Program-made: the position numbers and the translations under genes
DNA from: Armatimonadota bacterium
GTDB taxonomy: Bacteria > Armatimonadota > UBA5829 > DSUL01
Direction: 5' to 3'
DNA: 64,000 nucleotides
Assembly (NCBI GenBank): GCA_039811685.1
Contig: JBDHZC010000004.1
Coordinates: forward strand, 197,924-261,923
Shown here: one piece after another, positions 12,646 through 34,996 of the stretch
Layout: every line of letters begins with the position of its first letter
Position numbering within the stretch: position 1 is the stretch's first letter
Notes under the pieces: model-generated
The model's database searches: none
Told to the model about the DNA's origin: nothing
Seen by the model: the letters and a program-made list of their open reading frames with translations, nothing else

Positions 12646-13490
12646 GCACGTGGATTATCGCTCTGAACACTTTTGGGGAGGCTATGCGCAAGAAGATTCT
12701 GAACGTCTTCCTGATCCTTGCGCTCGGGTCGGTCATCATCTCGCTCACGTTTACGTTTCTGACATTCCGCCAGCAGGTGGATATCCTGAAGAGCTTTGGC
12801 CTGGGAATGATTCAGTTCTGGGGGCTGTTCATCGCGATTATCATGGGCATTACGCTGATACCGCAGGACATGGATCAGCGCACGATCTATACCATTCTGT
12901 CCAAGCCCGTGAAGCGCTATGAATACATTGTAGGGCGCTTCCTGGGCGCCGCAATGACGCTCGGCGTCAATGTTTTGCTGATGGGGCTTGCGTTTCTCGT
13001 AGTGTTTCTCATCAAAGTGAACACGGGGGACGACAGCGCAATGGATGCCCTTGCCAATTACCACATTGGCGAGTTCTTCTCGCGCTTCCACTGGTCGGCT
13101 GAGATTCCGGGGCTGATCGGCGGCATACTGATGGTGTTTCTAAAGCTGCTCCTGCTGGCCGCCGTGGCGATCTTCTTTTCTGTGTTCATCAGTATGACTG
13201 TGAACTTCTTTCTGACGGCTGCGGTGTTCATTGTTGGCAGCATGTCCAGTGTCACGGAGTCCATGGCCAACAATCCGGAAACGTCGCCTCTGTTACGCGT
13301 TATCTACAAGGGTTTTCACCTTCTGGTTCCCAACTTCGGCAACTACGACATCCAAAATCCTCTCATCCATCCGGATGTTCCGCAGTCTGATATCGGCATG
13401 TATATGGTGAAAGCGGCCCTTTACGGGCTCGCGTACACGATCGTACTCATCGTTCTGGGCGTTCTGGTTTTTGAGCGGCGGGAGGTATGA
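12642..13490 (+). CDS. ABC-2 type transporter permease
   Basis: Six predicted TM helices. Overlaps the ATPase stop (ATGA-style coupling). Confidence 0.8.
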   Translation: MSTWIIALNTFGEAMRKKILNVFLILALGSVIISLTFTFLTFRQQVDILKSFGLGMIQFWGLFIAIIMGITLIPQDMDQRTIYTILSKPVKRYEYIVGRFLGAAMTLGVNVLLMGLAFLVVFLIKVNTGDDSAMDALANYHIGEFFSRFHWSAEIPGLIGGILMVFLKLLLLAAVAIFFSVFISMTVNFFLTAAVFIVGSMSSVTESMANNPETSPLLRVIYKGFHLLVPNFGNYDIQNPLIHPDVPQSDIGMYMVKAALYGLAYTIVLIVLGVLVFERREV

Positions 13491-14767: not shown

Positions 14768-14896
14768 CTTCGACAGAATGCTGCTCGGATCTCTCCACCG
14801 CTTGACGGACGGTGTTTGCGTCAGTATTATGGTGTGCGCCTGTCCGCTCTCAGCCCGGTGCAGCTTCACAATATCTTGTTTCGGAGCAACTGATTA

Positions 14897-15928
14897 TTGA
14901 CAACTAGACAGCCCGTCCGCAAGACTACTTCCACGCGCTCGCAGCGGCCTGGAAAATCCACCTCCCGTCGCCGGAAAAAGCCTTCCCTTTTCAGCGTAGT
15001 CTGGAAACTCTTTCTAGTTGCTGTCTTCGCCGCTGTCTCTCTGGCTGTTGGGGTCGCAACGTACTGGACAGTCAAGAGTCCGTCCATTCGTCAGGCTGCC
15101 ACGGCGGCGGTTACGGGCGGGTTGTCACCCGACAAGGCCTTTCCAGGGCGTAGTGAGCTTAATATTCTGCTGCTCGGCCGGGACGAGGACCGCGACAACA
15201 AAGATCGTGTCATGAACACGCGCGGACGCACCGATACGATAGTCCTCGCCCATCTCGATTTTGCCCAACGGCAAGTGAATCTCCTCTCCATACCGCGTGA
15301 TACGCTGGTGCGGATTCCTGGCTACTCCGGCCGGCACAAGATTAACGCAGCGAACGCGCTCGGCGGTCCGGAGTTGACGGCGCAGACTGTCGAAAACCTT
15401 ATAGACATCAAACCTGACGGCTATGTTCTGGTTGACTACAAGGTGTTTCAGACACTGATTGACCAGGCTGGCGGAGTTCAAGTGAATGTCCCGAAGCAGC
15501 TCGACTATGACGACAACTGGGGCAATCTGCACATCCATCTCAAGCCCGGGCCGCAACATTTAAACGGGGAGCAGGCGCTCGGGCTGGTGCGCTTCCGGCA
15601 CTCTAACGACGGTCGCGCGGACTCTGACCAGGAGCGCATCGCGCGCCAGCAGATGCTTCTCGCCAGCGCCCGCCACCAGTTTACGCGTCCAGCGATGCTG
15701 CTTCGTTTGCCTGAGGTCTTTTCGACTCTTATGGAGCAGACCGATACCACGCTAACAACAGACCAGGCGCTGTGCCTGGCAAATTTTGCGCGCAGTGTCG
15801 GCAGCAACATGCGCATGGAAGTGTTGCCTTCAATTCCGGCGCGGTCCGCGCTGCGTATGGATCGAGTCCGCGCGCGGCAGCTTGTGGAAGAGATGTTCAT
15901 CAAAGGACAAAGCAAAGAGTCCACGTAG
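14897..15928 (+). CDS. LytR-CpsA-Psr (LCP) family cell-envelope phosphotransferase
   Basis: Basic N-terminus, a TM helix, and LCP motifs: ILLLGRDEDRD…RTDTIVLAHLD, LLSIPRDTLVRIPG and INAANALGG. The start appears to be TTG. Confidence 0.8.
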   Translation: MTTRQPVRKTTSTRSQRPGKSTSRRRKKPSLFSVVWKLFLVAVFAAVSLAVGVATYWTVKSPSIRQAATAAVTGGLSPDKAFPGRSELNILLLGRDEDRDNKDRVMNTRGRTDTIVLAHLDFAQRQVNLLSIPRDTLVRIPGYSGRHKINAANALGGPELTAQTVENLIDIKPDGYVLVDYKVFQTLIDQAGGVQVNVPKQLDYDDNWGNLHIHLKPGPQHLNGEQALGLVRFRHSNDGRADSDQERIARQQMLLASARHQFTRPAMLLRLPEVFSTLMEQTDTTLTTDQALCLANFARSVGSNMRMEVLPSIPARSALRMDRVRARQLVEEMFIKGQSKEST

Positions 15929-17039: not shown

Positions 17040-17378
17040 CTAACCCCTCTGACTGAAATGCCGGATTTCAGCTTCAAATTCGCGGCGCATCTCATCCATG
17101 CGGTTCTCCGCTTCTTCTTGCGTCTGCTTCAGTCGCTCCAGCAGTCCAAGAATTACCTCAACGCCTGCAAGATTTACTCCCAGATCCTGCGTCAGCCGTT
17201 GGATTTGTTGAAGTCGCTGAATGTCTTCTTCTGAGTATAGCCGGTTGCGTCCGTTGCGCCGCTGCGGCTGCACAAGTCCCAGGCGCTCGTACAAGCGCAG
17301 AGTCTGGGGGTGCATGTGGCACAGCCGAGCAGCAATACTGATCATGTAAACTGGCTCGTCCTTGTGTTGTGTACTCAT
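17040..17378 (-). CDS. hspR: Heat-shock transcriptional repressor HspR (MerR family)
   Basis: MerR HTH ([30 protein letters not shown]…[12 protein letters not shown]) and a C-terminal coiled coil. It is the last gene of the dnaK operon, as in Streptomyces. Confidence 0.8.
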
Positions 17379-17452
17379 TGTCGCTCAAACCTCCAGTCTG
17401 CATTTCCCACGCGGAGATGAGTCCCGCCGGCGCCGCTAGTTGGTTCGGAAGC

Positions 17453-18442
17453 TTATCCAGCTTTCAACCCTTGAGCGATTGCCAGCTCCGTCAGCACCTC
17501 CTGTTCTCTTGCTGACAGCGGTTTCGGAACTGTAATCATCACTCTCGCCATCAGATCGCCGCTGCCTTCCCCCTTCAGCTTTGGCATTCCCTTGCCTTGC
17601 AGCCGCAAAGTCTGCCCGCTCTGTACGCCTGCTGGAACCTTCATGGTGACGCGCCCGGTCATCGTTGGCACAGCAATCTCTCCCCCCAGCGCTGCCAGCA
17701 GATAGGGCACCTGGACATCTTCAGTGAGGTTGTCCCCATCACGTTTGAATCGCACGTGTGGTTTGACGACTACGTTCAGGATGACGTCTGCCTTCTGCCC
17801 GTTGGCGCCAGGAGCTTCGCCAGCCAGCCTGATCTTGGAGCCCGTATTCACGCCTCGCGGTATCTTGACTGTCAGCCGCCGTCCACCTACGCTAATCTGA
17901 CGCTCTGAGCCTGAGTACGCTTCTTCCAGGGACACCTGCACTTCCGCCTGAACGCTTTGTGGCTGAGGCGCAAAGTTTGCCCCGAAGCCCCCAAAGCCGC
18001 CCTGGTCTACGTGGAACCGTCCGCCTCGTCCTCGGGTTGCGCCACCGAACAAGCCTTCAAAGATGCTCCCGATATCAGGGCCGCCTGCGCCGCTTCCAAA
18101 TCCGACATCGTCAAAATTGCCGTCGAAGTGGAACCCACCGCCACCCGGGCCGTACGCTTCAAAATCCGTTGCTGTGGCGCCTGCCTTCTGCGCTTGCTGC
18201 CACTGTTCCCACTGTGGGCCAAAGCGGTCGTACGCCTTGCGATTCTCCGGATCTTTGAGGACCTCATAGGCTTCGCTCACGAGCTTGAACTGCTCTTCCG
18301 AAGCTTTATCGCCGGGGTTGACATCCGGGTGGTGTTTGCGGGCGAGCTTGCGGTAAGCCGACTTGATCTCTTTTTCTGTCGCGCTTTTAGGAACGCCAAG
18401 AATTTTGTAATAGTCCTTGCTTGCCGCCATCGTATGCCTCAA
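17453..18442 (-). CDS. J-domain co-chaperone, class B (CbpA/DnaJ-like, no zinc-finger region)
   Basis: J domain DYYKILGV…HPD, a G/F-rich linker, and a C-terminal substrate-binding region. No CxxCxGxG repeats. Confidence 0.85.
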   Translation of the reverse strand: MRHTMAASKDYYKILGVPKSATEKEIKSAYRKLARKHHPDVNPGDKASEEQFKLVSEAYEVLKDPENRKAYDRFGPQWEQWQQAQKAGATATDFEAYGPGGGGFHFDGNFDDVGFGSGAGGPDIGSIFEGLFGGATRGRGGRFHVDQGGFGGFGANFAPQPQSVQAEVQVSLEEAYSGSERQISVGGRRLTVKIPRGVNTGSKIRLAGEAPGANGQKADVILNVVVKPHVRFKRDGDNLTEDVQVPYLLAALGGEIAVPTMTGRVTMKVPAGVQSGQTLRLQGKGMPKLKGEGSGDLMARVMITVPKPLSAREQEVLTELAIAQGLKAG

Positions 18443-18530
18443 ACTACTGCCGAACCAGGATTGGAACGGTAGAGGAAGCGGGTGTTGCCCCGCCTCCCTT
18501 TTACAATCACCACCTCATCGCCGGCGATCC

Positions 18531-18965
18531 TCAACCGACTTCGATGTCAATCTTCTTCGGCCTGACGGCCTGTGATTTGGGGATGGTCACCTGCAGCAGC
18601 CCATCCCGATAGACCGCTTTCACATTCTGGACATCCACCGGAATACCGATAGAGAATGACCGTGAAAACGGACCATACTGACGCTCAACGCGTACCCATT
18701 GCCCGTCATCCGGTTGCGGAAGGCTGCGTTCACCAGAGACGTTCAGCGTATCTGCCGTGACTTCTATGTTGATGTCTTCCATCTTTACGCCAGGCACTTC
18801 GCAGACAACAACGATATCGTTGTCGCTCTCACGCACATCGCACTCCGGCGTCCAACTTGAACTCCGCGCCTCTTCCGCTCCGCCACGCCGCGCGCCGTGT
18901 CGCCACGGCTCAAACAGCTCCGCAATTTCCCTGAACGGATCTCGTCCCCTTACATCCATTCGCAT
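18531..18965 (-). CDS. Hsp20/α-crystallin small heat-shock protein
   Basis: α-crystallin domain pattern (…VRESDNDIVVVCEVPGVKMEDINIEV…GLLQVTIPK). Confidence 0.85.
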   Translation of the reverse strand: MRMDVRGRDPFREIAELFEPWRHGARRGGAEEARSSSWTPECDVRESDNDIVVVCEVPGVKMEDINIEVTADTLNVSGERSLPQPDDGQWVRVERQYGPFSRSFSIGIPVDVQNVKAVYRDGLLQVTIPKSQAVRPKKIDIEVG

Positions 18966-19077
18966 CTGCTTTCACCTCTCAAGTAGTCTTTGTGAATGTT
19001 TTTGTGGCTTCTACCCTGCTCCTCTGGGGAGGAGATCAGCCTGGCGCAGTTGCAACTGCGCCAGGTGTCGTGTGTGT

Positions 19078-20913
19078 TTACTCCTCTTTGTACTCGGCCT
19101 CGATCACGTCTTCGCCGCCGTTCGACGCGGCGGCTGCCCCTGCCGGTTCCTGTTCCGGAGACTCCTGTTCCGCGCTCTGCCGGTAGAGAATCTCGCTAAG
19201 CTGATAAGCTGCCTGCTGCAGCTCTTCTGTGGCCGACGCGATATCCTGCTGGTTATCGCCCTTCAGCGCTTCCTGCAGCTTGTCGCGCGCGCTCTCCACG
19301 CGGGCGCGGACGTCTTCCGGCGCTTTGTCACCAAGGTCTGTCAGCGTCTTGTTGGTATTGTAGATAAGGCTGTCAGCGCGGTTCTTGATCTCCGCAACCT
19401 CTTTGGCCTTGCGGTCATCATCAGCGTGCGACTCCGCCTCGCGCACCATCTTTTCGATATCGCCCTTATCCAGATTACTGGAGCCGGTAATCGTGATACT
19501 TTGCTCGCGTCCGGAAGCCCGATCCTTCGCGCTCGCATGCAGAATGCCGTTGGCGTCAATGTCAAAGGTCACTTCGATCTGCGGGATACCACGAGGCGCG
19601 GGTGGAATTCCAGACAGGTGGAACATTCCGAGGCTCTTGTTGTCGCGGGACATCTCGCGCTCACCCTGAAGCACGTGCACTGTAACTTCGGTCTGCCCGT
19701 CAGCGGCCGTCGTGAATGTTTCAGATTTGCGCGTAGGGATCGTTGTGTTTCTCGGAATGAGCTTGGTGCACACGCCGCCCAGAGTCTCGATGCCCAGTGA
19801 AAGCGGTGTCACGTCCAGGAGCACAACATCCTTCACTTCACCCGCCAGAACGCCAGCTTGGATAGCAGCGCCTACTGCCACGACCTCATCCGGATTAACG
19901 CCCCTGTGCGGGTCCTTGCCAATGAGCTTCTTGACCAGCTCCTGCACCTGTGGCATTCGGGTTGAGCCGCCAACCAGAATCACTTCATCAATGTCTTTGT
20001 CCTCGAGTTTGGCGTCTTCAATAGCCTGCTTGTACGGCTTCACGCAGCGGTCCAGCAGGTCCGCAGTCAGCTCCTCAAACTTTGCTCGGGTGAGCGTGAC
20101 ATCCAGGTGCTTTGGGCCGTTAGCGTCGGCCGTAATGAAGGGCAGGTTGATGTTCGTCTGGACCACGTTAGACAGCTCAACCTTCGCTTTCTCAGCGCCT
20201 TCGCGAAGCCTCTGAAGCGCCTGCTTGTCTGAGCGCAGATCAATTCCAGATTCTTTCTTGAACTCATCAGCCACATACTCGACAATGCGCTCATCCCAGT
20301 CATCGCCACCCAGATGCGTATCGCCATGCGTGGACTTGACTTCGAACACGCCTTCGCCCACCTCCAGGATGGACACGTCAAACGTTCCCCCTCCAAGGTC
20401 CCAAACCAGAATGGTTTCGTTTTCCTTTTTGTCCAACCCGTACGCCAGGGCGGCAGCAGTTGGCTCGTTGATAATCCTCAGTACCTTGAGCCCTGCGATC
20501 TCGCCTGCGTTCTTGGTCGCTGTGCGCTGGGCGTCGTTGAAGTAAGCCGGTACAGTGATCACCGCGCTCTCCACTTTGTCCCCAAGGTAGGCTTCCGCGT
20601 CTGTCTTCAGCTTCTGAAGAATCATGCTGGATATCTCTTCAGGAGAATAGTTCTTGCCGTCGATCGAAACGCGCTTGTCCGTTCCCATATCGCGTTTGAT
20701 CGAGATCACGGTGCGCTCGGGGTTGACGATAGCCTGACGCTTTGCCTGCGTCCCTACCAGCCGTTCGCCATTCTTGGTGAATCCAACAACGCTCGCCGTA
20801 ATTCTGGAGCCTTCGGCGTTTGGGATGACGGTGGGCTCGCCGCCCTCCATAACCGCGACGACCGAGTTAGTGGTGCCAAGATCGATACCAACTGTTTTTG
20901 CCAATGCAATCAC
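19078..20913 (-). CDS. dnaK: Chaperone DnaK (Hsp70)
   Basis: Full-length Hsp70: [26 protein letters not shown], a substrate-binding domain and an EEVD-like acidic tail. A GGAGGTGA SD precedes the ATG. Confidence 0.97.
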
Positions 20914-24879: not shown

Positions 24880-24893
24880 GCAACCCTCACACG

Positions 24894-24965
24894 TCGTACA
24901 CCTTCAGCACCTCGTCGCCGTAGTGGTTGATGACTTTGACGGCGATTTTGCCGGACCGCGATGCT
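24894..24965. repeat. Direct repeat copy 1 (72 bp): a duplicated 3' end of mod, downstream of the helicase gene
   Basis: 69/72 identical to 28617-28688. On the minus strand it would encode …VKVINHYGDEVLKVYDV*, which is the mod C-terminus, but here it is orphaned and noncoding. Confidence 0.85.
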
Positions 24966-24985
24966 GGCGAAATCCTTGGCGTTCC

Positions 24986-26179
24986 TTACAGGATATCTAT
25001 GTCGTCAGTTGTCAATGACTGGCCAGTGGGTTTGACTTCCTCTCCTTTCTGCCTGACGCTGACACTGCGCCCGATCTCCGGTTCTAGCCATTCAAGCTGC
25101 GGCAGCGGAGTTCCACTTGTACTCATATACACCCAGTCCTGTGCGCGTGTAGTGCCAACAAAAAGGAGATCCTCTGGCGGTGTGGGCACGTTCTCAAAGC
25201 GGTGCCACGAGAGGTAAGGCATGAAAACACTGTTGAATGTGAGTCCTTTTGCCGAGTAGTAGGTCATCACTTTTGGAGCGTCTGATGTGTGGTCCGCCTC
25301 TTTATTAAACTCAGCTGGGATTCCCGCTTCCTGCAGACCCTTGGTGTTTCCGATCGCTAGACGGTTTGTGGGTACAAGAATTGCAACTCGCTCTCCCATG
25401 TTCACCCGCTCTCGAACAAGTCGGATCAGATTCTCCGACTCGTCGTGGTAGTCTGCTGCTTTGTACAGGACCACCGTTTCGCTCTGCTTGGTTGGGGTGT
25501 ATTTCTGTGCCAGGAACTTCCCTCGCTCAGCCTCGTCGAGTAGGAAACACGCTGCCGCATTATGAACGTGGGGGCAGCACCGGAAGGCATTGATAAGGGC
25601 TATATTCTCCTGCTTTAGCCCCAGGGCTTCCAGCACCTGCCGCTCGTCAGTACCCTCTTCGTAGAGTCGCTGCTTCTGATCCATCGCTACCATAAGATGT
25701 CGACTGATCAAGGTGAGCGTGCTCAAGGATTCGGCATCAATATCCTGTGCTTCGTCCACGAGAACAAACTCATACAGTGGGCGAGGTAATCGCCGGGCTA
25801 GTAGATGGCTTCTCACTGCAGCTCTCATCTCCGTGAACGCAGGACATCTATCATTTCTGTTCCATGGAAGCTGCCGGCCAATGTGGTCTCTGTAGTAATC
25901 GCAACACCAGCTGTCCCAGGTGCAAACACTATCTTCCGGGAGATCAATCAAAGTGGAGTCGGCCTGAATGTACTCTTTCAGCGCATTTGTATAGACAAAC
26001 AACTTGAAACTGTCGGGAGGAAGACCGTACTTTGTTCGCAAATAGTCCGCGCGATGCACAAGAACCATGGACTTGCCAGAACCAGGAGGCCCGGTGATAG
26101 CTCGGCTTCCGTCCATAGGTTGCTCCACGGCCCGCTGCTGTTCGGGTGTCAGGCGTGCAAAAGGCACGAGCCAAGCCAT
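24986..26179 (-). CDS. Compact SF1 UvrD-like helicase with Cys-rich inserts
   Basis: Walker A GPPGSGKS, motif II FVLVDEAQD, a UvrD_C-like YYSAKGLTFNSVFM and motif VI VGTTRAQDWV. Cys clusters CTWDSWCCDYY and FRCCPHVHNAAACF are present. Its ATG lies 3 nt after the stop of the Hsp70-like gene. Confidence 0.8.
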   Translation of the reverse strand: MAWLVPFARLTPEQQRAVEQPMDGSRAITGPPGSGKSMVLVHRADYLRTKYGLPPDSFKLFVYTNALKEYIQADSTLIDLPEDSVCTWDSWCCDYYRDHIGRQLPWNRNDRCPAFTEMRAAVRSHLLARRLPRPLYEFVLVDEAQDIDAESLSTLTLISRHLMVAMDQKQRLYEEGTDERQVLEALGLKQENIALINAFRCCPHVHNAAACFLLDEAERGKFLAQKYTPTKQSETVVLYKAADYHDESENLIRLVRERVNMGERVAILVPTNRLAIGNTKGLQEAGIPAEFNKEADHTSDAPKVMTYYSAKGLTFNSVFMPYLSWHRFENVPTPPEDLLFVGTTRAQDWVYMSTSGTPLPQLEWLEPEIGRSVSVRQKGEEVKPTGQSLTTDDIDIL

Positions 26180-26182
26180 TTG

Positions 26183-28576
26183 CTACTCCTTCCCGCTGGG
26201 ACCGATTGGGAGCACCCCTCCTCCGTCTTCTCCATTGCCACCCATCTTTCGGCGACGGCTTTCTTCGTCACAAGCCGAAAGGAGTTTGTTGTCTCCTACC
26301 ATACGCGCTGCAAGGCGCAGCCAGCCCACCTCCCAATCCTCCAGAGCTTCAACAGGTCCGAACGTCTCAAGAGCTTGCGACAGCGCTGCATCTCGCCCGT
26401 CCTTGTCGCCTTGCCCGCTTAGGATTTTAGCGTAGAGAACGAGGTAGCCTGCTTCCCGTTCGCGTTCCAAAGCTTGCTCAACCAACAAACGCGCTTTTTG
26501 AAGTTCACCGCGATGCTCGAGAGAATCGGCGAGGTTAAATAGGGGCCCACCCCAGTTTGTGCCAGCTTGGGCCGCGGCCGTGTAGAAAGTCTCCTCCCGT
26601 TTATGATCGCCTAACCGCCCTGCGTAGATTCCGGCCAAGTTCAGCAGGCCCGGTTGCGGAGTACCGGCGATTGTATTTGCTGTCTTTAGATGACTGAGAG
26701 CCCGCTCGAATTGCCTTACCTCTGCACAGAGTACCGCGAGCTCCCGGAACGCGGCCACGCGGGCCCATCCCGCGTAATCTCCTGTTCTAATCTTTTCCTC
26801 GATCTCAATAATCTTACCGCGAGTCTCGTTTGGGTCGACCACGTGGGTCAGAGGCCGTTCAACTGTGAGGCCGAATGGACTCCCCGGCGCTCCAGCGCGA
26901 AATGCCCGTATTGCCAGCATCTGGTTGTCGTCCATATGATACTGAACTACTAGGGATTCCCCCTTGGTCACCGGTCCCGAGATCCTCCAAATCGCAGATT
27001 GCAGCCGACGCTGGGCACGTCCGTCGTCAGCCGTCAGATCGATCCGAAGATCCAATGATTCAGCTGTCTCCGGTATGCTAAGGGTGTCTATCTGGCCCCA
27101 GCCGTCCGCAGGATATGGCACAGCTTCGCCCTTGGGAATCAGGGTGAGAATCCCATCTCTTGTGCGGAGGCCGATGCTATCGCTCAGAACTGGCTGAATA
27201 AGACCCGCGCCAAAAAGGCGCAGTGCCAATGAGTGCAAGGCTGCCCCCTCGGCGACGGCAGTCTGTATCTGTCCGTGGTCGTCAAAAGTCCGCACTTGTG
27301 CTTGAGGCCCCAGGTGTTGTTCCAGCGCCTCCACAACCTGTGGAATCAGGCTGCTGCCGCCGACGAGTAGCACTGTATCCACGTCGGTTGGTCGCAAATT
27401 AGAGCGGGCTAGCGCATCATCCAGCGGCGCAAAGATGGAGCATGTGACGCCGTAATCACCCTCAATAGGCACTGTGATGTCTTCGTCGAGAAACGGAGCG
27501 AGGATTGCCTCGAACTGTTCTAGCGTGAGAGAGGGGCTGGGTAGCAGAAGCTGCCTGCCATTTAACACACACTGATGGCTTGATGGAAGTACTGCAGTGT
27601 GGCGATCGGTATCTGTCGGATCGAAACGCTTGAAATCCTTGAGCCTTCGTACGCTGTTGCACAGCGATATCTTCAGTGACTCAGCCACGCCGAGAAGGGC
27701 TGGCTCCAGGAAGTACTTTCGCTCCTTGAACTCTATTTCGCTGGACGATATCCCATTTGCTTCGAGCAATGCAGGAATCAGGACTTCATGTACAATGGAG
27801 TTATCAATGTCACCACCACCAAGCCGGTGGTAACGAGACACCGCTAGCGGAGCCACGCTTATCGGACGCTCCGGTGACTGGCGCGTGAGCTGAAGTACCG
27901 CTATGTCGCAGGTGCCGCCGCCGAAGTCGAACACCACAAGGCGCGACGAGCCGCAGCGCTGCAGGGGATCCTCGTCTGGTAGGCCGTTGAGAAAAGTCAG
28001 AAACGCTCCAATCGGCTCATCAAGCAGATCCCCCGGCATTATCTGTATGCCTGCTTCGCGTGCCGCCTCCACAGTGTCCGAGCGCTGGGGCACCTGGAAC
28101 GAGGCAGGTACCGTAACGACGGCCCTCTGAATGGCCGTGTCGTCGCGCAGCGTTTCCACCAGACACCCTAAAACTTTCGCTGCGATGTCGCGTGCGCATC
28201 GAAAGCCTTCCGGCGCCTGGTTGTAAGTGCGCGTAATGCCCATTTCATTCTTGCATTCGTAGAACAGGTCCCGGTAAGGTAAGAGGTTATACTCGGTGCT
28301 CTCAGCTCTTAGCCGCTTGGCGCCTTCCCCGACAAGTACCCGGTTTGGCAGAACAGCCACCACCGAAGGGAACAGCGGACTCGTAGTATTGCCGGCATTT
28401 AGTGTCTCTTGGGGAATATCGAGGCAACGCACCTGGACGCTCTCTGGCTGGTTTGGATCCCAGCTTGCCTCGGCGACAGTTGAATTCGTTGTACCGAGAT
28501 CAATGCCAATTCCCGTTACGGCTTCATCGGGTACGTCGTTCTGTCGTGCTGCCATAAGTTCACTGAAGTAGCTCAT
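26183..28576 (-). CDS. Hsp70-like ATPase (nucleotide-binding domain plus β-sandwich) with a C-terminal TPR array replacing the helical lid
   Basis: Hsp70/actin-fold motifs [20 protein letters not shown] and VLLVGGSSLIPQV. A β-rich segment is collinear with DnaK SBDβ. The ~250 C-terminal aa are TPR-like repeats. An AAAGGA SD precedes the ATG. This protein is distinct from the housekeeping dnaK at 19078..20913. Confidence 0.8.
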   Translation of the reverse strand: MSYFSELMAARQNDVPDEAVTGIGIDLGTTNSTVAEASWDPNQPESVQVRCLDIPQETLNAGNTTSPLFPSVVAVLPNRVLVGEGAKRLRAESTEYNLLPYRDLFYECKNEMGITRTYNQAPEGFRCARDIAAKVLGCLVETLRDDTAIQRAVVTVPASFQVPQRSDTVEAAREAGIQIMPGDLLDEPIGAFLTFLNGLPDEDPLQRCGSSRLVVFDFGGGTCDIAVLQLTRQSPERPISVAPLAVSRYHRLGGGDIDNSIVHEVLIPALLEANGISSSEIEFKERKYFLEPALLGVAESLKISLCNSVRRLKDFKRFDPTDTDRHTAVLPSSHQCVLNGRQLLLPSPSLTLEQFEAILAPFLDEDITVPIEGDYGVTCSIFAPLDDALARSNLRPTDVDTVLLVGGSSLIPQVVEALEQHLGPQAQVRTFDDHGQIQTAVAEGAALHSLALRLFGAGLIQPVLSDSIGLRTRDGILTLIPKGEAVPYPADGWGQIDTLSIPETAESLDLRIDLTADDGRAQRRLQSAIWRISGPVTKGESLVVQYHMDDNQMLAIRAFRAGAPGSPFGLTVERPLTHVVDPNETRGKIIEIEEKIRTGDYAGWARVAAFRELAVLCAEVRQFERALSHLKTANTIAGTPQPGLLNLAGIYAGRLGDHKREETFYTAAAQAGTNWGGPLFNLADSLEHRGELQKARLLVEQALEREREAGYLVLYAKILSGQGDKDGRDAALSQALETFGPVEALEDWEVGWLRLAARMVGDNKLLSACDEESRRRKMGGNGEDGGGVLPIGPSGKE

Positions 28577-28616
28577 GCGATTCCTTTCTTGCCAAGTTTG
28601 TGATGAGTTCCTTCCA

Positions 28617-28688
28617 CCCTCACACGTCGTACACCTTCAGCACCTCATCACCATAGTGGTTGATGACTTTGACGGCGATTTTGCCGGA
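28617..28688. repeat. Direct repeat copy 2 (72 bp): the native 3' end of the mod gene
   Basis: Identical to 24894-24965 except for 3 transitions; it encodes the last ~22 codons and stop of mod. Confidence 0.85.
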
Positions 28689-31415
28689 TTCGGGACGGGC
28701 GAAGGGGCGGCTTGTGGTGAGGTAGAGATCGGCCCACGCAGCTTCGTCCACCTCCGCTCGGAGCGCTCTCTTCAGTTTGTCGTATGGCTCGCCTGCGCCT
28801 GTGAAATAGGCGTGGCGCACGAAGAAGCTCTCTTCGTTGTAGCTCGTGTCTATGAACCAGGCGGCGATCTCGTCGGTTGCGTCTGACCGGAGCTCGCCAG
28901 TCGTCGGATCGTAGATGTCCACACCGCGGATAGTCACCTGCACCTGGTCGCCAGACAAGTGGCTCACCACGATATCCGGCTCTCCGAAGATCATGAAGAG
29001 GTTTCCGGCGCCGGTTTTCTTCAGGAGTTCGTCGCCCATCGTGAGGTCGGCGTTGATCCTTGTGGGAAGGACGACGAGGTTTCCGTAGCGCTTCGTCTCC
29101 TCGCCGACGTGTGGATCGAAGGCGAGGCCGGCGATGAGGAGCGTGTCGAATCCAGCGCCCTTCACAGCCTCCTTGGCGGCTTCACGTACGAGGTCCGGCG
29201 TGACGGTCCCAAACTCCGGGCCCACACAGACGGCCACCCGCTTTGTGGTCTCCCCTTCCGTATATTCACCGGCCGCGTGCAACCACTCGCCAGGGTAGAT
29301 GTCCAGACGGTCGAACTTCAGCCGCTCACCCTTGACGGTGTTCTGGACACCGGCCTTCTTCATGTTTTCGATGATGGTGACGCCAAACTCGCCCGCTCCG
29401 CGGATAGAGAACTGGTAGCCGTCCTCCGTCGGCTTTTCAAGCTCTTTTTTGCTCTGCACGGATATCTGGCGGTGAGGAGACAGGCTTTCGACGGTGAAAG
29501 GGCCTGTAACGCGGATGCGCTTGTTGTCTTCGTAGGGCTTGTCGTAGAGAAACTCGGCGTCGGCCCGGCGGGCGATGCTGGCGTCAATCTCCTGCTGGCG
29601 CTCCCGGCGCAGGTCCCACCATTTCTTCAGCAGGGCCTCCGCCTCACTGCCCACTGGCTTCTTCCCGCTGTCCCCTGTCCGCGGCACTTCCCACTCTTCC
29701 CAGCTCTTTCCGAAGGCCTGGTTGATTTTTGCTCGCAAGTCCTCCAGCGCGGGCTGCCACTTTTCGTGGATGGTGTCTATCTCTTCGTTGTTGGCGATGG
29801 ATTTCAGCGTGATGTGCGGCACGCGCTGGTAAACAAAGCCGCGCTTGATGTCGTGGCCAGTGGTCAGTGATTGGTGGTCAGTGGGCAGTGAGGCGTGGTC
29901 GGCTTCCAGCCCTCTGATTTCGGACTCTTTCTTGCGCCCCTCGGGGGAATCGGCCAGCAGGTAGTAAGGAAACTTCGCGCACATAAGGCGTGTGCGGGCA
30001 AGGGTCAGCGCTACGCGAGAGGTGTCGCAGGTGATCCAGCGGCGTCCCCACTGCTCCGCTACGTACGCCGTCGTGCCGCTGCCGCAGGTGGGGTCCAGGA
30101 CGAGGTCGCCGGGGTCGGTGGTCATGAGGAGGCAACGCTCGATCACACGGCGCGCGGTCTGGACCACATACTGCTTGTCTTCGCTCCAGCCTGCTATGAC
30201 GGTGTCAGTCCAGAGAGCGTTCAGTGGGACAGCACCGAAATCGTCGAGGAACCTAATGTACCCTGCCGAACTGCGCCGCGCGGAAACGCGACCGGCAGTG
30301 ATCAGACGCGCCATACCTTCAGGGTTCGACTTGTAGCTGTTCGCATATGTGCGCCCGTTCACTACCACCTCGAATACAGGGTTGCCTTGTGTCGCCAAAT
30401 TGTCGTGGCGGAACAGCTTGCTGCCGGCCGGCAGCTGTTGTATCGCAGCTAAATCATCTGTCGGGAGTGTGCGGGTACTTCCGTCAGGCAGCATTGCATA
30501 GCGGTATTCTGCTGTGCCGCCACCGCCCAACTCCTTGTTTAGGTAAAGCTGATGGTACTTCACAGCCTCTCGGTTCTTCGTGTACCACAGCAGATAGTCT
30601 GCAACCCCGGTCAGCAAGCGCGACTGGAAACCGCTGGTTTTCGCAAAGACTATCTCGCCGCAGGAATTCTCACTCCCAAACACCTCGTCCAGAAGGCACC
30701 GCACCAGGTGCACGTTCTCATCACCAATCTGCACGAACACGCTGCCGGATTCAGTGAGAAGCTCGCGGGCGACGACCAGCCTGTCGCGGAGATACGCGAG
30801 GTACGAGTGGATGCCGTACTCCCACGTGTCCCGGAACGCCCGGACCTGCTCCGGCTGGCGCGTCAGGTCAGAGGCTGCCCCGTCCTTCACATCGCGCTTG
30901 CGCGTGGACACCTGCCAGTTGCTGCCGAACTTGATGCCGTAGGGCGGGTCTATGTAGATCATCTGGACCTGCCCCTTCAGCCCCTCCTTCTCCGCCAGCG
31001 AGTTCATCACCAGCAGGCTGTCGCCCAGGATCATCCTGTTGGACCAGTGGTTGGCGTGCTCGTAGAACTGAATCTGTTCCTCGAACGGCAGGCCGTTGAA
31101 GGCATCGCCGAACAGATCGAGCTGGGCGGGGGGCGCTGGAGACGCTTGGGCGCTCGCCTGCCGCCGGAAGTCCTCGATAATCGCCTGCGGGTGAATCTTC
31201 TCCTGAATGTAGATGGGGACAGACAGCACGGACAGGTCCTCAGCGTCCTGCTGGTCCTTGCCCTTCCACACAAGCTGGGGGTCCAGCGACGGATCGCGCG
31301 GATACAGCACCGCCTTCGGCTTCTGCTCGTCCTCGCTTACAAACCCTCGAAGCTCCTCCGTCGGTATGTTCGGCCGGGTGTCGGAATGGGTGATGTTCTC
31401 AATCTTCTTGTTCAT
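28620..31415 (-). CDS. mod: Type III-like restriction-modification DNA methyltransferase (Mod; N6-adenine/N4-cytosine class) with a long C-terminal extension
   Basis: Catalytic IYIDPPYG motif, AdoMet-binding region (LDPTCGSGTTAYVA) and a ~350 aa C-terminal extension. Start set at ATG 31415 (MNKKIENI), which has an AGAGGA SD. The ORF track opens it at GTG 31442. Confidence 0.85.
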   Translation of the reverse strand: MNKKIENITHSDTRPNIPTEELRGFVSEDEQKPKAVLYPRDPSLDPQLVWKGKDQQDAEDLSVLSVPIYIQEKIHPQAIIEDFRRQASAQASPAPPAQLDLFGDAFNGLPFEEQIQFYEHANHWSNRMILGDSLLVMNSLAEKEGLKGQVQMIYIDPPYGIKFGSNWQVSTRKRDVKDGAASDLTRQPEQVRAFRDTWEYGIHSYLAYLRDRLVVARELLTESGSVFVQIGDENVHLVRCLLDEVFGSENSCGEIVFAKTSGFQSRLLTGVADYLLWYTKNREAVKYHQLYLNKELGGGGTAEYRYAMLPDGSTRTLPTDDLAAIQQLPAGSKLFRHDNLATQGNPVFEVVVNGRTYANSYKSNPEGMARLITAGRVSARRSSAGYIRFLDDFGAVPLNALWTDTVIAGWSEDKQYVVQTARRVIERCLLMTTDPGDLVLDPTCGSGTTAYVAEQWGRRWITCDTSRVALTLARTRLMCAKFPYYLLADSPEGRKKESEIRGLEADHASLPTDHQSLTTGHDIKRGFVYQRVPHITLKSIANNEEIDTIHEKWQPALEDLRAKINQAFGKSWEEWEVPRTGDSGKKPVGSEAEALLKKWWDLRRERQQEIDASIARRADAEFLYDKPYEDNKRIRVTGPFTVESLSPHRQISVQSKKELEKPTEDGYQFSIRGAGEFGVTIIENMKKAGVQNTVKGERLKFDRLDIYPGEWLHAAGEYTEGETTKRVAVCVGPEFGTVTPDLVREAAKEAVKGAGFDTLLIAGLAFDPHVGEETKRYGNLVVLPTRINADLTMGDELLKKTGAGNLFMIFGEPDIVVSHLSGDQVQVTIRGVDIYDPTTGELRSDATDEIAAWFIDTSYNEESFFVRHAYFTGAGEPYDKLKRALRAEVDEAAWADLYLTTSRPFARPESGKIAVKVINHYGDEVLKVYDV

Positions 31416-32004
31416 GGGTCCTCTGGGCCTCATGGGACGCACGCTGAATGTTACGTTGCCGCAGCCGCGCCCGCGTCATGCGCTCGCGCAGGCCACCTTC
31501 CTCAAGGAAGGACTTCTCCAGGCTTCTCAGCAGGCGGTCCAGCAGATAGTTCGTCTGGTGAATCAGGCAGATGATGGTGTTTGCCGCGACCTCCGGAGGC
31601 GCGTGGGCCACACGAGTCTCATAAGTCTTATAGGACACATGCTCCCCGTACGCCAGCTTCCGGATTACCTGCGCCTGCGGGTGGTTTTTGTCCCACGCCG
31701 GCAGTTTGCGCGTGCGCAGAAAGTCGCGGTAGTCCTCCAGAAGCTCCTCCAGACTGGCGCGCGCGACGTTCATCAGCTTGATTTCCGTCTCTTTGGAGGT
31801 CGCCGAAGCCATGCTCCCTTCCACGATGTTTTGCTTGCCAGACCTTGCCGCCTGAATCATCTGATCGTGTGTCCGGCTGCGCCTGTCAACAAAGCGCTGA
31901 CAAAAGGCGGCCGTCGCGTCATAGACGATCCTGGCTTTCTGGTAGGCCGCAAGGTCCTGGTAGCCTCCGTGCTTCGGGATGAAGCCTGCTTCAGACATCG
32001 GCAT
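31399..32004 (-). CDS. Four-helix-bundle protein (TIGR02436; 23S rRNA intervening-sequence protein family)
   Basis: Characteristic block …QKARIVYDATAAFCQRF…QMIQAARSGKQNIVEG…EIKLMNVARASLEELLEDY…. It overlaps res at its 5' end and mod at its 3' end. Confidence 0.75.
   Translation of the reverse strand: MPMSEAGFIPKHGGYQDLAAYQKARIVYDATAAFCQRFVDRRSRTHDQMIQAARSGKQNIVEGSMASATSKETEIKLMNVARASLEELLEDYRDFLRTRKLPAWDKNHPQAQVIRKLAYGEHVSYKTYETRVAHAPPEVAANTIICLIHQTNYLLDRLLRSLEKSFLEEGGLRERMTRARLRQRNIQRASHEAQRTHEQED
31413..31441. repeat. Res/Mod junction repeat, copy A (29 bp)
   Basis: CATGGGTCCTCTGGGCCTCATGGGACGCA matches 32002-32030 at 26/29. In one frame it encodes the four-helix-bundle C-terminal tail ASHEAQRTHEQED*; in another it encodes MRPMRPRGPM, which leads into mod. 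Confidence 0.8.
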
Positions 32005-34996
32005 GGGTCTTGTGGGTCTCATGGGACGCATGATGGAGCCAGGCCCGTATCGTCTGCTTCGCATCCCACGGATCGCTTATCTCCAGGAACGCCCAGCGGC
32101 CGTAGCCGCCGTGGTTGTTGATGGCTGGAACCCACAGTGTCCGGGCCGTAGCGGTCTTCGCCGTCTTGTCCTTTCTCTTTTCACCGGAGCACTCGAGGAT
32201 CAGGTTCAGCGTCTGTCCGTCCCCCTGCCGGACGTGGCAGATGAAGTCCGGGATGTAGCTGCGCTCCTCCCCGGAAAGCGAATAGGGAATTGTGAAGCCG
32301 AGGTTGTGGTTCTTGACGTAGTGTGCGACTTCGACCATCTCCTCCAGCGCCTGCGCAAGTTTTTGCTCCCACGACTCCGTGTCGGCCACGACGTGCGAGA
32401 TGTGGCACTTTTCCGGATCGGTCGCATACACCGGGCGCGTTGTGTCGAAGTCCACGTAGCGCGTGGAGCCGACGGTGTCATACGGTCGCAGGATCGGTAT
32501 CAGCCGCTTTTCGCCCTCCTGGGACGCCACAATCGCCCTGTAGATACGGTCGGCGGCGTCGTGCTGAAACTGGGTCAGGAGCATAAGCTGCGGGAAGCAG
32601 TTGTCCTTGCAGGTGAGGCATTCCTCAAGCCAGCGGCGGGCGATTTCGACCAGATCCGGGAAGTACCAGTGTTTGATATTACCCTCTTCGTCCCGGAAGT
32701 ACGCCTCGAGCGTCCGTTTGGCCAGGATAAAGGCCACCTCTTGCATTCGGTGTTTGCGAAGGTCATCCAGGTTGTGAATAACGGTTTCACCGACAAAGGC
32801 GCCCATCTTCGTGCGAGTGGTAACATCTTCGGTCGTGAGGGCGAAGCGTGAATCCTCTGTGAAATCTGCGGTCAGCCGCTCCGCGGGAAACTCATAGCGG
32901 TATCCCGAAACACGCGGGAAGGTGATCTCGCATGCAATCCGGTCTTCCAGCGCCCGGACGCGCGTGGGGATCGGTCCGGGTTTCGGGTCGGTCATCGAAC
33001 CGGCCGCCGGGATAAAGGAAAACGGAACGCCGTACACCTCTGCGTATTCTGCGGGGAACAGCCCGTTGTCATCCGGCTGATGGCTCATTCGGCGCAGCCC
33101 GCGTCCAACCACCTGCTCACAGAGGAGCTGTGTCCCAAATGCGCGTACCCCGAGGATATGGGTCACGGTGTTCGCATCCCAGCCTTCGGTGAGCATTGAG
33201 ACTGAGACAACGCAGCGCACATGCTCCCCCAGCTTTCCCCGTTTACCGACCGTGTTCATAACCTCGCGCAGCAGGTCCTCATCGGTCAACTTGCTGGCGT
33301 CGCGTCCAGGGAAGCGCGCTACATACTCCGCCTTGAACTCCTCGATCTCGGCGGCGGCTATCTTCTTGAACTCATCGCTCATCGCCTCGCCCGATTCGAG
33401 CTGCTCGCTGTCAATCAGAATCGTGTTCGGACGGTGCAGCCACTGGCCGTGCTCGACATTGCTGAAAAGAGGGAGCGCCCCGGGCACATTGACCGTCTGG
33501 CCATCTTCGAGCGGTTTCTCCCATCCGGCGATGAAGTCGAAGACGAGCTTCGAAACGTTCGTGTTGTTGCAGACGACAATGAACACCGGCGGAACGCCGG
33601 AATTACCGGCGTCATCTGTGCTCTGCTCCCACTGCCGGTAGTATTTCTCGTAGTTGCCGTAAAGGCTGCGAATGGCGCCTTCCAGCTCTGCTGGCAGCTT
33701 TGGTTCAACGGGAGCAGCCTCCGTGCCGCGGCCTTTTTTCGGGAGATCGTCCCGGATGCGCGTCCACAGATCGCGGTACGTCGGCTGGTCGCCCGTCATG
33801 GAATCGTCCGCTACGGGCACGCGCGGGACTTTCACGATGCCGGACTCGATGGCGTCCACGAGAGAGAAGTCCGAGACAACCCACGGGAACAACATCCCTT
33901 CCGGATAGCCTGACCCGCGAAGGAAGAACGGTGTTGCGGACAGATCGTAGATGGCCTTTACACCTATCTTGTTCTTGACCGCCTCAATGCCTGATATCCA
34001 GACGCGGGCTGCTTCGTCGCGCTTCTGCGCCTCTTTGCGCTCATCGCCGGTCAGCTTTTCTTCGGGGGCTTCCGGCTTGCGCCTGTAGCAGTGGTGCGCT
34101 TCGTCGTTGATGACGATGATGTTCTTCTTCGAGCCAAATTGCCGGCACACTCTGCGCACCATTTCATCGGGCGTCTCCGTGAACGTCGAGCTTGACGAAC
34201 CTCCACGCGACTGCAGCACCTCTTTGGTGAGCTTCCCGGCCGAGATCTTTTCCCGGTGGAGGAATGCGTGGTAGTTCGTGATGAGGATATTGGCCTGACC
34301 GAGATCTTCGCGCATGTCGGCGGGCACAACATCCATAGTCCGGTAGTAGTTGTCCCCGTCGTTTGGGAGCAACACGCGCAGGCGGTCTTTGATGGTGATT
34401 CCCGGCGTGATAATCAGAAAAGTATCGGAAAAGCGCGTGTCCTGCCGGTTTGCCAGCTTGTTGAGGGTGTGCCAGGCGATAAGCATGGCCATAACGACCG
34501 TCTTGCCAGTTCCCGTGGCCATCTTGAGCGCAAGGCGGTCCAAACCGGGATTGCTGGCGTTGTTGAAGTCTTTCAGCTTTGTGGCCAGGGACGCATCGCC
34601 CATTTTGCCCGCGCACTCGGTTAGGTAGATCAGAGTCTCCAGCGCTTCGATCTGGCAGAAGTAGAGCCGCCGCTCGCGATCTTCAGCGGTCCAGTGCGCA
34701 AGAAGCTGCCGGGTAACGGGGGTAACGCCTGGTCTGCCCTCCCGCCGCCACAATCCCACGCGCTCGCGCACCAGATTGATGAAGGTATTCTCTTCGATTC
34801 GCTCCTGCGTCCATTCCGTAGCCAGCACAAGCTGTTTGCTTTTCTTCTTGGCTTTTGGGACGGGAATGAAGTAGGAGCTGCGCCTGCGGCTTTCGACGAT
34901 GTCGCTCGTGATGCCATCTTCATCGAAGCGGAAGTGGCGGCGGGGCTCCTCAAAAGGAGAGTTGATAACGGGGTTTTCGATTACGACCTGAGCCAT
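31991..34996 (-). CDS. res: Type III restriction endonuclease Res subunit (SF2 helicase-nuclease)
   Basis: Classical Res N-terminus MAQVVIENPVINSPFEEPRRHF. Helicase motifs I (MATGTGKT) and II (VINDEAHH) and motif VI (QVVGRGLRR) are present across ~1000 aa. Confidence 0.9.
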   Translation of the reverse strand: MAQVVIENPVINSPFEEPRRHFRFDEDGITSDIVESRRRSSYFIPVPKAKKKSKQLVLATEWTQERIEENTFINLVRERVGLWRREGRPGVTPVTRQLLAHWTAEDRERRLYFCQIEALETLIYLTECAGKMGDASLATKLKDFNNASNPGLDRLALKMATGTGKTVVMAMLIAWHTLNKLANRQDTRFSDTFLIITPGITIKDRLRVLLPNDGDNYYRTMDVVPADMREDLGQANILITNYHAFLHREKISAGKLTKEVLQSRGGSSSSTFTETPDEMVRRVCRQFGSKKNIIVINDEAHHCYRRKPEAPEEKLTGDERKEAQKRDEAARVWISGIEAVKNKIGVKAIYDLSATPFFLRGSGYPEGMLFPWVVSDFSLVDAIESGIVKVPRVPVADDSMTGDQPTYRDLWTRIRDDLPKKGRGTEAAPVEPKLPAELEGAIRSLYGNYEKYYRQWEQSTDDAGNSGVPPVFIVVCNNTNVSKLVFDFIAGWEKPLEDGQTVNVPGALPLFSNVEHGQWLHRPNTILIDSEQLESGEAMSDEFKKIAAAEIEEFKAEYVARFPGRDASKLTDEDLLREVMNTVGKRGKLGEHVRCVVSVSMLTEGWDANTVTHILGVRAFGTQLLCEQVVGRGLRRMSHQPDDNGLFPAEYAEVYGVPFSFIPAAGSMTDPKPGPIPTRVRALEDRIACEITFPRVSGYRYEFPAERLTADFTEDSRFALTTEDVTTRTKMGAFVGETVIHNLDDLRKHRMQEVAFILAKRTLEAYFRDEEGNIKHWYFPDLVEIARRWLEECLTCKDNCFPQLMLLTQFQHDAADRIYRAIVASQEGEKRLIPILRPYDTVGSTRYVDFDTTRPVYATDPEKCHISHVVADTESWEQKLAQALEEMVEVAHYVKNHNLGFTIPYSLSGEERSYIPDFICHVRQGDGQTLNLILECSGEKRKDKTAKTATARTLWVPAINNHGGYGRWAFLEISDPWDAKQTIRAWLHHASHETHKTHADV
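32002..32030. repeat. Res/Mod junction repeat, copy B (29 bp)
   Basis: CATGGGTCTTGTGGGTCTCATGGGACGCA encodes the res C-terminal tail ASHETHKTHADV* in one frame and MRPMRPTRPM, leading into the four-helix-bundle protein, in another. Confidence 0.8.

Follow-up and report, generated by a model that had tools for sequence, protein, structure and literature searches.

The window analysed here is a stretch of 64,000 nucleotides (nt) from an Armatimonadota bacterium (GTDB lineage Bacteria; Armatimonadota; UBA5829; DSUL01), located at positions 197,924 to 261,923 of the forward strand of contig JBDHZC010000004.1 in GenBank assembly GCA_039811685.1. It contains a pair of adjacent minus-strand genes that encode an Hsp70-like ATPase and a compact superfamily 1 (SF1) helicase. 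An earlier reading of the sequence, referred to below as the original prediction, had singled out this pair as a candidate undescribed module with a possible role in phage defence. The first gene (gene 1, 26183..28576, minus strand) encodes a protein of 797 amino acids (aa), in which an Hsp70-like ATPase with a β-type substrate-binding domain (SBDβ) is followed by a tail of tetratricopeptide repeats (TPR); the protein is called Hsp70-TPR below. The second gene (gene 2, 24986..26179, minus strand) encodes a 397-aa compact helicase core of the SF1A (UvrD/PcrA-like) type. Both assignments are based on the open reading frames, Pfam matches, AlphaFold2 (AF2) models and Foldseek comparisons, and the coordinates originally given for the two reading frames are correct. 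The genes are separated by a spacer of 3 nt (26180..26182, minus strand), as had been reported, and the junction from the gene 1 stop codon to the gene 2 start codon reads TAGcaaATG. The two genes are translationally coupled.

Pairing and distribution of the two genes

Relatives of gene 1 were collected by scanning one genome per species and confirming the matches by tblastn. At least 435 confirmed relatives were found in species-representative genomes, and the 80 loci that were kept come from about 15 phyla, all of them from metagenome-assembled genomes. Relatives of about 800 aa number more than 4000, and the SBDβ-TPR half of the protein falls into 331 clusters at 50% identity, with nearly all complete members measuring 780-810 aa. 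The family is widely distributed among environmental phyla, and those that carry it include Acidobacteriota, Desulfobacterota, Planctomycetota, Verrucomicrobiota, Bacillota, Armatimonadota and several Proteobacteria. The nearest relative is no more than 47-49% identical, and the best relatives, at about 45% identity, come from unrelated phyla.

The helicase gene lies directly downstream of the Hsp70-TPR gene, on the same strand, in 58 of the 67 genome loci where at least 1300 nt are available for it. Conversely, an Hsp70-TPR gene lies directly upstream in every one of the 51 metagenome helicase loci that have at least 2500 nt of upstream sequence. The original prediction depended on homologues of the two proteins occurring together elsewhere, and these counts bear it out. 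The spacing of the genes is also tightly constrained: a 4-nt overlap is found in half of the pairs (58/116), and the gap falls between -4 and +8 nt in 100 of the 116. When the pairwise-identity matrices of the two proteins are compared, the correlation is r=0.77, against a permutation maximum of 0.12. Hsp70-TPR and the helicase are a real unit that is inherited and moves as one, and the two proteins are co-evolving.

The Hsp70-TPR protein

The gene 1 product begins with an Hsp70-type nucleotide-binding domain (NBD; residues 20-455, encoded by 27212..28519, minus strand), which is defined by conserved alignment columns and by the AF2 model. Pfam HSP70 matches residues 23-265, the first half of this domain only, with an E value of 2e-26. 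An interdomain linker and an SBDβ-like β-sandwich follow (residues 456-575, 26852..27211, minus strand), as judged from the AF2 model and a profile alignment to DnaK. In that alignment, positions 22-578 of a 117-sequence family profile correspond to DnaK residues 3-498, that is, to the NBD plus SBDβ. The AF2 monomer is predicted with high confidence (mean predicted local distance difference test score, pLDDT, 92.9; predicted template-modelling score, pTM, 0.89) and consists of the NBD at 20-455, a β-sandwich at 460-573, 12 helices at 584-778 and a short tail. The best Foldseek matches of this model are lid-less DnaK and BiP structures in domain-docked states (E about 1e-26, about 20% identity).

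The 12 helices form a TPR-like helical repeat domain (residues 584-778, 26243..26827, minus strand) that takes the place of the α-helical lid. The AF2 model supports this assignment, as does a profile search against the Protein Data Bank (PDB), in which the top match of the C-terminal part of the family profile is a consensus TPR protein (E 6e-43). The replacement of the lid by TPR repeats, which had been recognised from the sequence, is thus upheld; the size first estimated for the repeat region, about 250 aa, is not, and the region measures about 195 aa. The protein ends in a C-terminal tail (residues 779-797, 26186..26242, minus strand) with a G787-x-L789-P790 motif found by alignment conservation. 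The final residues are ...GGGVLPIGPSGKE, and the reported absence of an EEVD tail holds.

Conservation was analysed in alignments of 32 and 117 sequences, and these substantiate the ATPase motifs and SBDβ-like segment reported for gene 1. D26, G28 and T29 are invariant, and K87, E187, D217 and T222 are invariant or at least 90% conserved. Conserved motifs specific to the family include ECKNDIG and VSRYHRLGGGDID. The NBD is the most conserved part of the protein, with a mean entropy of 1.35 bits, compared with 1.82 for SBDβ and 1.91 for the TPR domain. Within the TPR domain, Asn646 and Asn681 are conserved and stand 35 residues apart, the length of one repeat. In the otherwise variable tail, G787, L789 and P790 are each conserved in at least 85% of the 117 sequences, and a G.[LPM]P motif lies within the last 25 aa of 70 out of 99 partner-linked Hsp70-TPR proteins.

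The possibility had been raised that the protein might simply be a chaperone of the HscC/YegD type with a normal lid. This is excluded by the AF2 model, by the lid-less Foldseek matches and by NCBIfam scores far below the family cut-offs (DnaK, 95.5 bits against a cut-off of 822.55; HscA, 85.5 against 708.55; PRK11678, 28.1 against 331). The protein is also distinct from the housekeeping DnaK of the same genome, which, as the original prediction recognised, is encoded by a separate gene at 19078..20913.

The compact helicase

Gene 2 contains the Pfam UvrD N- and C-terminal domains (UvrD-helicase and UvrD_C). Its conservation was analysed in a 32-sequence set and in 119 relatives; among the latter, all of the helicase motifs (Q, I, Ia, II, III, IV, V and VI) are present and invariant or nearly so. 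The near-invariant positions are Q14, G30-K36, D142-D146, D167/Q170, R200, K311-F315 and V341/R345/A346, and Q171/Y173 are likewise conserved in the 32-sequence set. The motifs read GPPGSGKS, VDEAQD, DxxQQxY, YRC, AKGLTF and VGxTRA. The Pfam matches and the alignments together establish the SF1 helicase that had been proposed from the GPPGSGKS, VDEAQD, UvrD_C and motif VI elements.

The protein is much smaller than UvrD, PcrA and Rep (397 aa, compared with 650-720 aa), and its NCBIfam UvrD score is 37.9 against a cut-off of 1144. Foldseek aligns the AF2 monomer (pLDDT 85.8) to PcrA, UvrD and Rep with query-normalised TM-scores (TMq) of 0.60-0.74 and 13-16% identity, in alignments of 615-660 columns in which the query side is mostly gaps. 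The length of these alignments implies that the large 1B and 2B insertions are missing from gene 2.

Both ends of the helicase carry conserved features outside the motor. The N-terminus has an invariant hydrophobic M-x-W-L-x-P motif. At the other end, a disordered linker leads into an acidic-hydrophobic C-terminal tail that finishes ...TTDDIDIL (residues 374-397, 24989..25060, minus strand); these residues have pLDDT values below 50 in the AF2 model, which predicts disorder. Among 99 partner-linked proteins, the last two residues are hydrophobic in 85, and Asp is found at position -3 in 66 and at position -6 in 65, so that the conserved end can be written D-Φ-x-D-Φ-L.

Two cysteine clusters in the gene 2 protein had been suggested to form a metal site. 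The clusters are present, but the metal site was rejected, since C92 and C201 are the sole conserved cysteines and both belong to ordinary helicase motifs (C92 to TFDxWC, and C201 to YRCxP, which resembles the NYRS of motif IV), leaving a Cys4-type site unsupported.

Boundaries of the cassette

The pair lies 43 nt downstream of a gene, mod, on the same strand. The claim that a Type III mod gene adjoins the pair upstream is confirmed by a PADLOC MTase_III score of 1015 bits. Repeats reported to bracket the pair are also real, and consist of a 73-nt direct repeat whose two copies, at 24883-24955 and 28616-28688, are 96% identical. Copy B (28616..28688), directly before gene 1, is the functional 3' end of mod, and copy A (24883..24955), directly after the helicase gene, is a remnant of the final 22 codons of mod plus the stop. 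Both copies encode the same 22-residue peptide, SGKIAVKVINHYGDEVLKVYDV*, with 3 synonymous differences. The two copies bracket a 3660-nt cassette that contains the two genes and nothing else. The duplication of the mod end argues that the pair arrived as a discrete insertion of 3.66 kb at the end of mod, with regeneration of the mod 3' end, and that its arrival was separate from that of the restriction-modification (R-M) operon.

Direct repeats were also considered as a general property of the cassette, and this idea was rejected. Among 41 loci with enough flanking sequence, a repeat longer than 13 nt flanks the pair at the window locus alone, and the absence of such repeats from the other 40 indicates that the repeat is a local insertion scar rather than a property of the element. 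The suggested empty site was not found by an exact look-up of the mod protein, which matched the source contig only.

Logan contigs that carry the pair end inside the 73-nt repeat. One of these (L002, from SRR31740696, 3763 nt) corresponds to 24883-28645 of the window and contains the two-gene cassette only. It has an identical 30 nt at both ends, inside the repeat, and its downstream repeat copy, unlike that of the window, matches the mod-type copy with 100% identity. The identical ends are consistent with a cycle in the assembly graph and are no proof of a circular form or intermediate. A promoter and terminator scan of the cassette gave counts at or below the expectation from shuffled sequence and is uninformative for this phylum.

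Genomic neighbourhood

Neighbouring genes were surveyed in 173 flanking proteins (89 upstream and 84 downstream of the pair), and the figures are raw counts without background correction. The commonest upstream families are ResIII, N6_Mtase, Eco57I, Helicase_C, SNF2, PLDc_2, Type_ISP_C and DUF499, with aggregated scan counts of 7 each for ResIII and N6_Mtase, 6 for Eco57I and 4 each for SNF2 and PLDc_2. PADLOC matches of upstream neighbours include Type IIG R-M, DrmD/DrmA/DrmMI, PglX, BrxH and DpdE, while defence-type neighbours on the downstream side include NERD-UvrD, DpdF, SngC, a PDC-S37-like helicase and DUF3800. At individual loci the pair is accompanied by GmrSD, Type ISP and a 1730-aa MTES_1575 helicase; by DISARM-like genes and a PLD-helicase; or by DUF1156/DUF499, AbiJ-TIR, HNH and NERD genes. 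A conserved housekeeping setting would have counted against the original prediction; instead the neighbours are variable, and many loci carry R-M, DISARM, BREX, Dpd or Abi genes. A general role of the pair in conflict or defence is likely, as judged from sequence and genomic context.

A different view of these neighbours is that the pair is an accessory of, or provides quality control for, ATP-dependent translocating restriction systems (Type III, ISP, IIG, I, DISARM, BREX and Dpd). On this view, restriction motors that have stalled or collided would be removed from DNA by the helicase and taken apart by the Hsp70-like ATPase, in the service of restriction alleviation, self-protection or stronger restriction. 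The position of the pair so close behind mod, with no terminator-like site between, would fit such a role, as would the prevalence of ResIII, N6_Mtase, Eco57I, SNF2, Type_ISP_C and DUF499 upstream and the co-directional R-M-type operons that directly precede the pair in three other loci (L005, L086 and L089). However, the partner systems come from many types that are unrelated to one another, and at most loci R-M genes are missing from within two genes of the pair. ResIII is found in 7/89 upstream and 3/84 downstream neighbours, and the pair is thus no constant component of Type III R-M. Nothing but the pair is conserved as a unit, the 73-nt duplication shows that it arrived apart from the R-M operon, and unrelated systems routinely lie side by side in defence islands. 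An accessory role is accordingly unlikely, and we continue to prefer a conflict or defence role for the pair in its own right.

Several other features of the window lie outside the module. The Type III R-M operon consists of res (31991..34996, minus strand; Pfam ResIII), a four-helix-bundle gene (31399..32004, minus strand) and mod (28620..31415 or 31442, minus strand; Pfam N6_N4_Mtase and PADLOC MTase_III). The four-helix-bundle gene matches TIGR02436, the '23S rRNA intervening sequence protein' family, and carries a TIGR04258 suffix domain; it lies between res and mod and overlaps both. A 34-nt direct repeat, 85% identical, is found at 31413-31446 and 32002-32035, at the starts of mod and the four-helix-bundle gene, where it encodes similar N-terminal peptides of the 'MRPMRP...' type. 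A canonical heat-shock cluster (17040-20913, minus strand), comprising dnaK (611 aa), hsp20, dnaJ and a MerR/HspR-like regulator, lies about 5 kb from the cassette. The locus as a whole is situated between uvrA and copA. A bacterial class A RNase P RNA (40412-40830, plus strand; Rfam RF00010, 230 bits) is the sole Rfam match in the window at the gathering threshold.

Distant variants and mobility

In one distant variant, a plasmid of Antarctobacter heliothermus, pSMS3-3, has three genes between IS6 and IS256 (L177, NZ_CP022543.1, 61049-66480). The first encodes a 959-aa Hsp70-SBD-TPR protein whose N-terminal extension of about 180 aa contains the sequence 'IRNRHAH' (RNxxxH) and gives a weak, sub-threshold Pfam match to HEPN_Swt1. 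The helicase gene follows after a 3-nt gap and encodes a protein of 387 aa that is 25% identical to the window helicase, and the third gene, which encodes 456 aa, has no Pfam match. Because the plasmid comes from a cultured strain, this locus is a possible experimental entry point.

A comparable arrangement, from another distant clade, is found at positions 9983-14955 of an IMG/VR sequence (L172, UViG_3300029360_000449), which encodes an 802-aa Hsp70-TPR, a 389-aa helicase and a 455-aa third protein of no assigned family, at about 27% identity. Its third gene is not similar to that of the plasmid. Type I hsdRSM, Abi_alpha, DUF4145, SLFN/AlbA_2, a Mob_Pre relaxase and an integrase are its neighbours, and the sequence resembles an integrative mobilisable element more than a phage. 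A further locus (L173) has a pair similar to that of L172. Two fusions were also seen: one Hsp70-TPR (P0296) has a C-terminal response-regulator receiver (REC) domain, and another (P0321) continues in frame into the C-terminal half of the helicase, a junction that a deletion or an assembly artefact may have produced. Taken together, the variants suggest that effector or signalling parts are now and then attached to a core.

The same loci raise the question of whether the pair serves the elements that carry it. It might act in addiction, in the manner of a toxin-antitoxin (TA) module with the helicase as toxin and the Hsp70-like protein as antidote, or it might help plasmids and integrative elements to become established or to counter defences. 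Two tightly coupled genes that form a cassette with a logic of holder and held are what one would expect of such a function. The duplication that flanks the window cassette, the IS6 and IS256 elements on the plasmid, and the integrase and Mob relaxase beside the pair of L172 also point in this direction, as does the lack of an evident anti-phage effector. On the other hand, the majority of loci lie on chromosomes and have no mobility genes immediately beside them, and two large ATP-consuming enzymes with all of their catalytic motifs conserved are atypical of TA modules. TA-like behaviour and abortive-infection defence in any case overlap in practice. We consider a purely selfish function distinctly unlikely.

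A model for the function of the module

Both proteins keep all of the residues for ATP hydrolysis, as read from their alignments. We lean towards a reading in which the pair is a self-contained, horizontally mobile two-gene module that probably acts in conflict with phages or mobile DNA and in which the Hsp70-like protein may gate the helicase; in this statement the weight is placed on the general role. The specific mechanism, gating by titration, is doubtful, and is offered from sequence features and by analogy with known chaperone systems. The EEVD tails of Hsp70 and Hsp90 dock in the TPR domains of Hop and CHIP, and peptide-binding TPR grooves contain a conserved Asn, a feature that the pair Asn646 and Asn681 of Hsp70-TPR resembles. 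By analogy, the D-Φ-x-D-Φ-L C-terminus of the helicase might dock in the TPR groove of Hsp70-TPR. Alternatively, or in addition, the N-terminal M-x-W-L-x-P of the helicase could sit in the SBDβ pocket. The GxLP tail of Hsp70-TPR would itself be a plausible ligand of SBDβ, as a pseudo-substrate.

In this proposal, Hsp70-TPR would be the sensor or gatekeeper, and the helicase would be both its client and the output of the system. If the helicase docks on the TPR domain or SBDβ, the Hsp70 ATP cycle would decide whether it is held or released. During an infection, the SBDβ and TPR sites might be contested by phage proteins arriving in a surge, or by a single specific one. The freed motor could then move on phage or host DNA, or possibly RNA, and would strip replication or transcription complexes or collide with replication. 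The phage would be blocked, or the infection would be aborted.

Several observations weigh against the proposed role. Neither protein contains a nuclease, NADase, pore or other known effector domain. The gene for Hsp70-TPR stands alone in nine of the 67 genome loci (L031, L054, L064, L068, L069, L074, L075, L082 and L084). In these nine, tblastn finds no helicase remnant and there is no recurrent substitute partner; the downstream genes encode PQQ-like, glycosidase, FMN reductase, HD, SLFN/AlbA and unassigned proteins. The solo genes without a helicase remnant indicate that the Hsp70-TPR ATPase may also act alone. Many of the downstream neighbours of the pair are housekeeping genes (CPSase, D-Ala-D-Ala ligase and transporters), and the association with defence, though strong, is qualitative, being drawn from raw neighbour counts. 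The family was not found in sequenced phages, and among plasmids of cultured strains it gave two matches, both of them distant variants. Finally, the contacts of the TPR domain with the helicase tail and of the SBD with the helicase N-terminus are inferred from conservation only.

As a separate observation on the solo loci, the downstream genes at L068 include those for an SLFN/AlbA_2-HATPase_c_4 protein and a DNA methylase.

The weakest of the other explanations is a housekeeping or stress function. HelD is an RNA-polymerase recycling factor. A specialised chaperone working with a HelD- or UvrD-like motor to recycle stalled RNA polymerase or repair complexes would be in keeping with the match of the helicase profile to HelD (E 3.7e-19), besides UvrD and PcrA, and with a locus flanked by uvrA and copA near the dnaK-dnaJ cluster, but such a function is very improbable, given that the family is patchily distributed with its best relatives in unrelated phyla, has no conserved genomic context and is not found in model organisms, that the cassette was inserted recently and is bounded by a duplication, and that the genome has its own canonical DnaK.

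Returning to the conflict module, a more far-reaching version of the argument holds that the pair represents a distinct class of immunity, and we regard this as a tentative possibility. Here infection would be sensed by the Hsp70 cycle, through the binding of a phage protein or through titration by phage proteins, and the cycle would control a bare SF1 motor without a nuclease. As part of the same reading, replication or transcription complexes would be remodelled mechanically, and this, rather than cutting or poisoning, would provide the immunity. The HEPN and REC domains and the third gene in distant branches would then mark the Hsp70-TPR and helicase core as a reusable sensor chassis, comparable to the cores of STAND/Avs or CBASS.

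Should the pair be a defence system, a catalytically intact Hsp70-type chaperone would for the first time be a core component of one, and the pair would be among the few helicase-containing systems that lack a nuclease. It would also offer a way to ask how a chaperone cycle senses infection and how a motor alone stops a phage. The records from cultured organisms, with distant plasmid variants only and no phage copy, could explain why the module is absent from screens in model organisms. The module is small (two genes, 3.6 kb) and easy to clone, and its mutational handles include D26, K87 and T222 of Hsp70-TPR, K36 of the helicase, N646 and N681 in the TPR domain, the helicase tail and the GxLP motif. 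The nearby heat-shock cluster also raises the question of whether the host DnaJ stimulates the Hsp70-like ATPase.

Relationship to known systems

The original prediction did not recognise the pair as any named system, and this judgement stands: PADLOC-DB v2 gives no match to gene 1 and generic UvrD-type matches only to gene 2. NCBIfam likewise gives nothing beyond sub-threshold DnaK and UvrD matches to the two proteins, and a full-text literature search found no description of a module that combines Hsp70-TPR with an SF1 helicase.

Hsp70-TPR has in common with the canonical and atypical Hsp70s (DnaK, HscA, HscC and YegD) the NBD fold, the catalytic residues, the hydrophobic interdomain linker and the SBDβ sandwich. 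It differs from them in that a TPR region of about 195 aa stands where they have the lid and in lacking an EEVD-type tail, and its NCBIfam scores are 8-9 times under the cut-offs of the curated Hsp70 families. Whereas the canonical Hsp70s are associated with DnaJ/GrpE or HscB, Hsp70-TPR is in an operon with a helicase, and its distribution is patchy and mobile.

The proposed contacts within the pair recall the binding of EEVD tails by Hop and CHIP, with a flexible acidic-hydrophobic C-terminal tail on one side and a TPR groove with a conserved Asn on the other, although an interaction of the two would here be inferred. The arrangement is reversed, in that the Hsp70-like protein carries the TPR domain and its partner carries the tail, and the tail is D-Φ-x-D-Φ-L rather than EEVD. 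DnaK controls σ32 by titration. The proposed gating would resemble this control in its logic, with a chaperone holding its client until competing substrates come.

Among named defence systems, Gabija is formed by GajA, an OLD-family ATPase-TOPRIM nuclease, and GajB, a UvrD-like helicase of about 500 aa with accessory domains. Like Gabija, a two-gene system of defence islands, the pair consists of two genes with a UvrD-family SF1 motor and often lies among defence-type genes. PADLOC GajB models match the helicase partially (best E 1.9e-14), and GajB structures are found among its fold and sequence matches. However, no GajA, OLD or TOPRIM nuclease is present at the window locus, which is flanked by mod and copA, or at the related loci inspected. 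The GajB matches are fragmentary (for example, residues 128-293 or 303-355), with a Foldseek TMq of 0.41, and the helicase here is a bare core of 397 aa whose partner is an Hsp70-like ATPase. The best PADLOC match of the helicase is to the candidate system C3a187 (NERD + UvrD), with an E value of 3.4e-19 over profile positions 201-542 of 559. This match covers the motor only, and gene 2 has no NERD match in Pfam; NERD-UvrD proteins do adjoin the pair in some loci.

The closest architectural parallel is in the Type III CoCoNuT systems. These predicted systems encode CnuD, in which an Hsp70-like NBD and SBD are followed by helical repeats. The Walker-A-like motifs of CnuD are degenerate, and the protein is predicted to bind RNA and to hydrolyse ATP poorly (Bell et al., eLife 2024, PMC11090510). 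The partners of CnuD are an McrB-like NxD GTPase (CnuB), a DUF2357 McrC homologue (CnuC) and HEPN RNases, and CnuD or CnuCD is encoded in defence superoperons beside R-M, BREX or Druantia-type systems (PMC11090510). More generally, Hsp70 proteins are found in predicted GTPase-centred conflict systems (PMC7159879). The likeness to CnuD is one of architecture, an NBD and SBD followed by helical repeats, as compared by description; a second likeness is between the HEPN of CoCoNuT and the RNxxxH extension of Hsp70-TPR in the distant plasmid variant. In contrast to CnuD, the catalytic residues of Hsp70-TPR are not degenerate but invariant or at least 90% conserved, and its repeats are TPR, whereas those of CnuD are HEAT-like with coiled coils. 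Its partner is an SF1 helicase; the McrB-like GTPase and the DUF2357 McrC homologue are absent from the window, and CnuB and CnuC are absent from the 25 commonest Pfam families of the 173 neighbour proteins. The pair therefore appears to be an undescribed, new combination among the NTPase/helicase modules of defence islands and the chaperone-based conflict systems.

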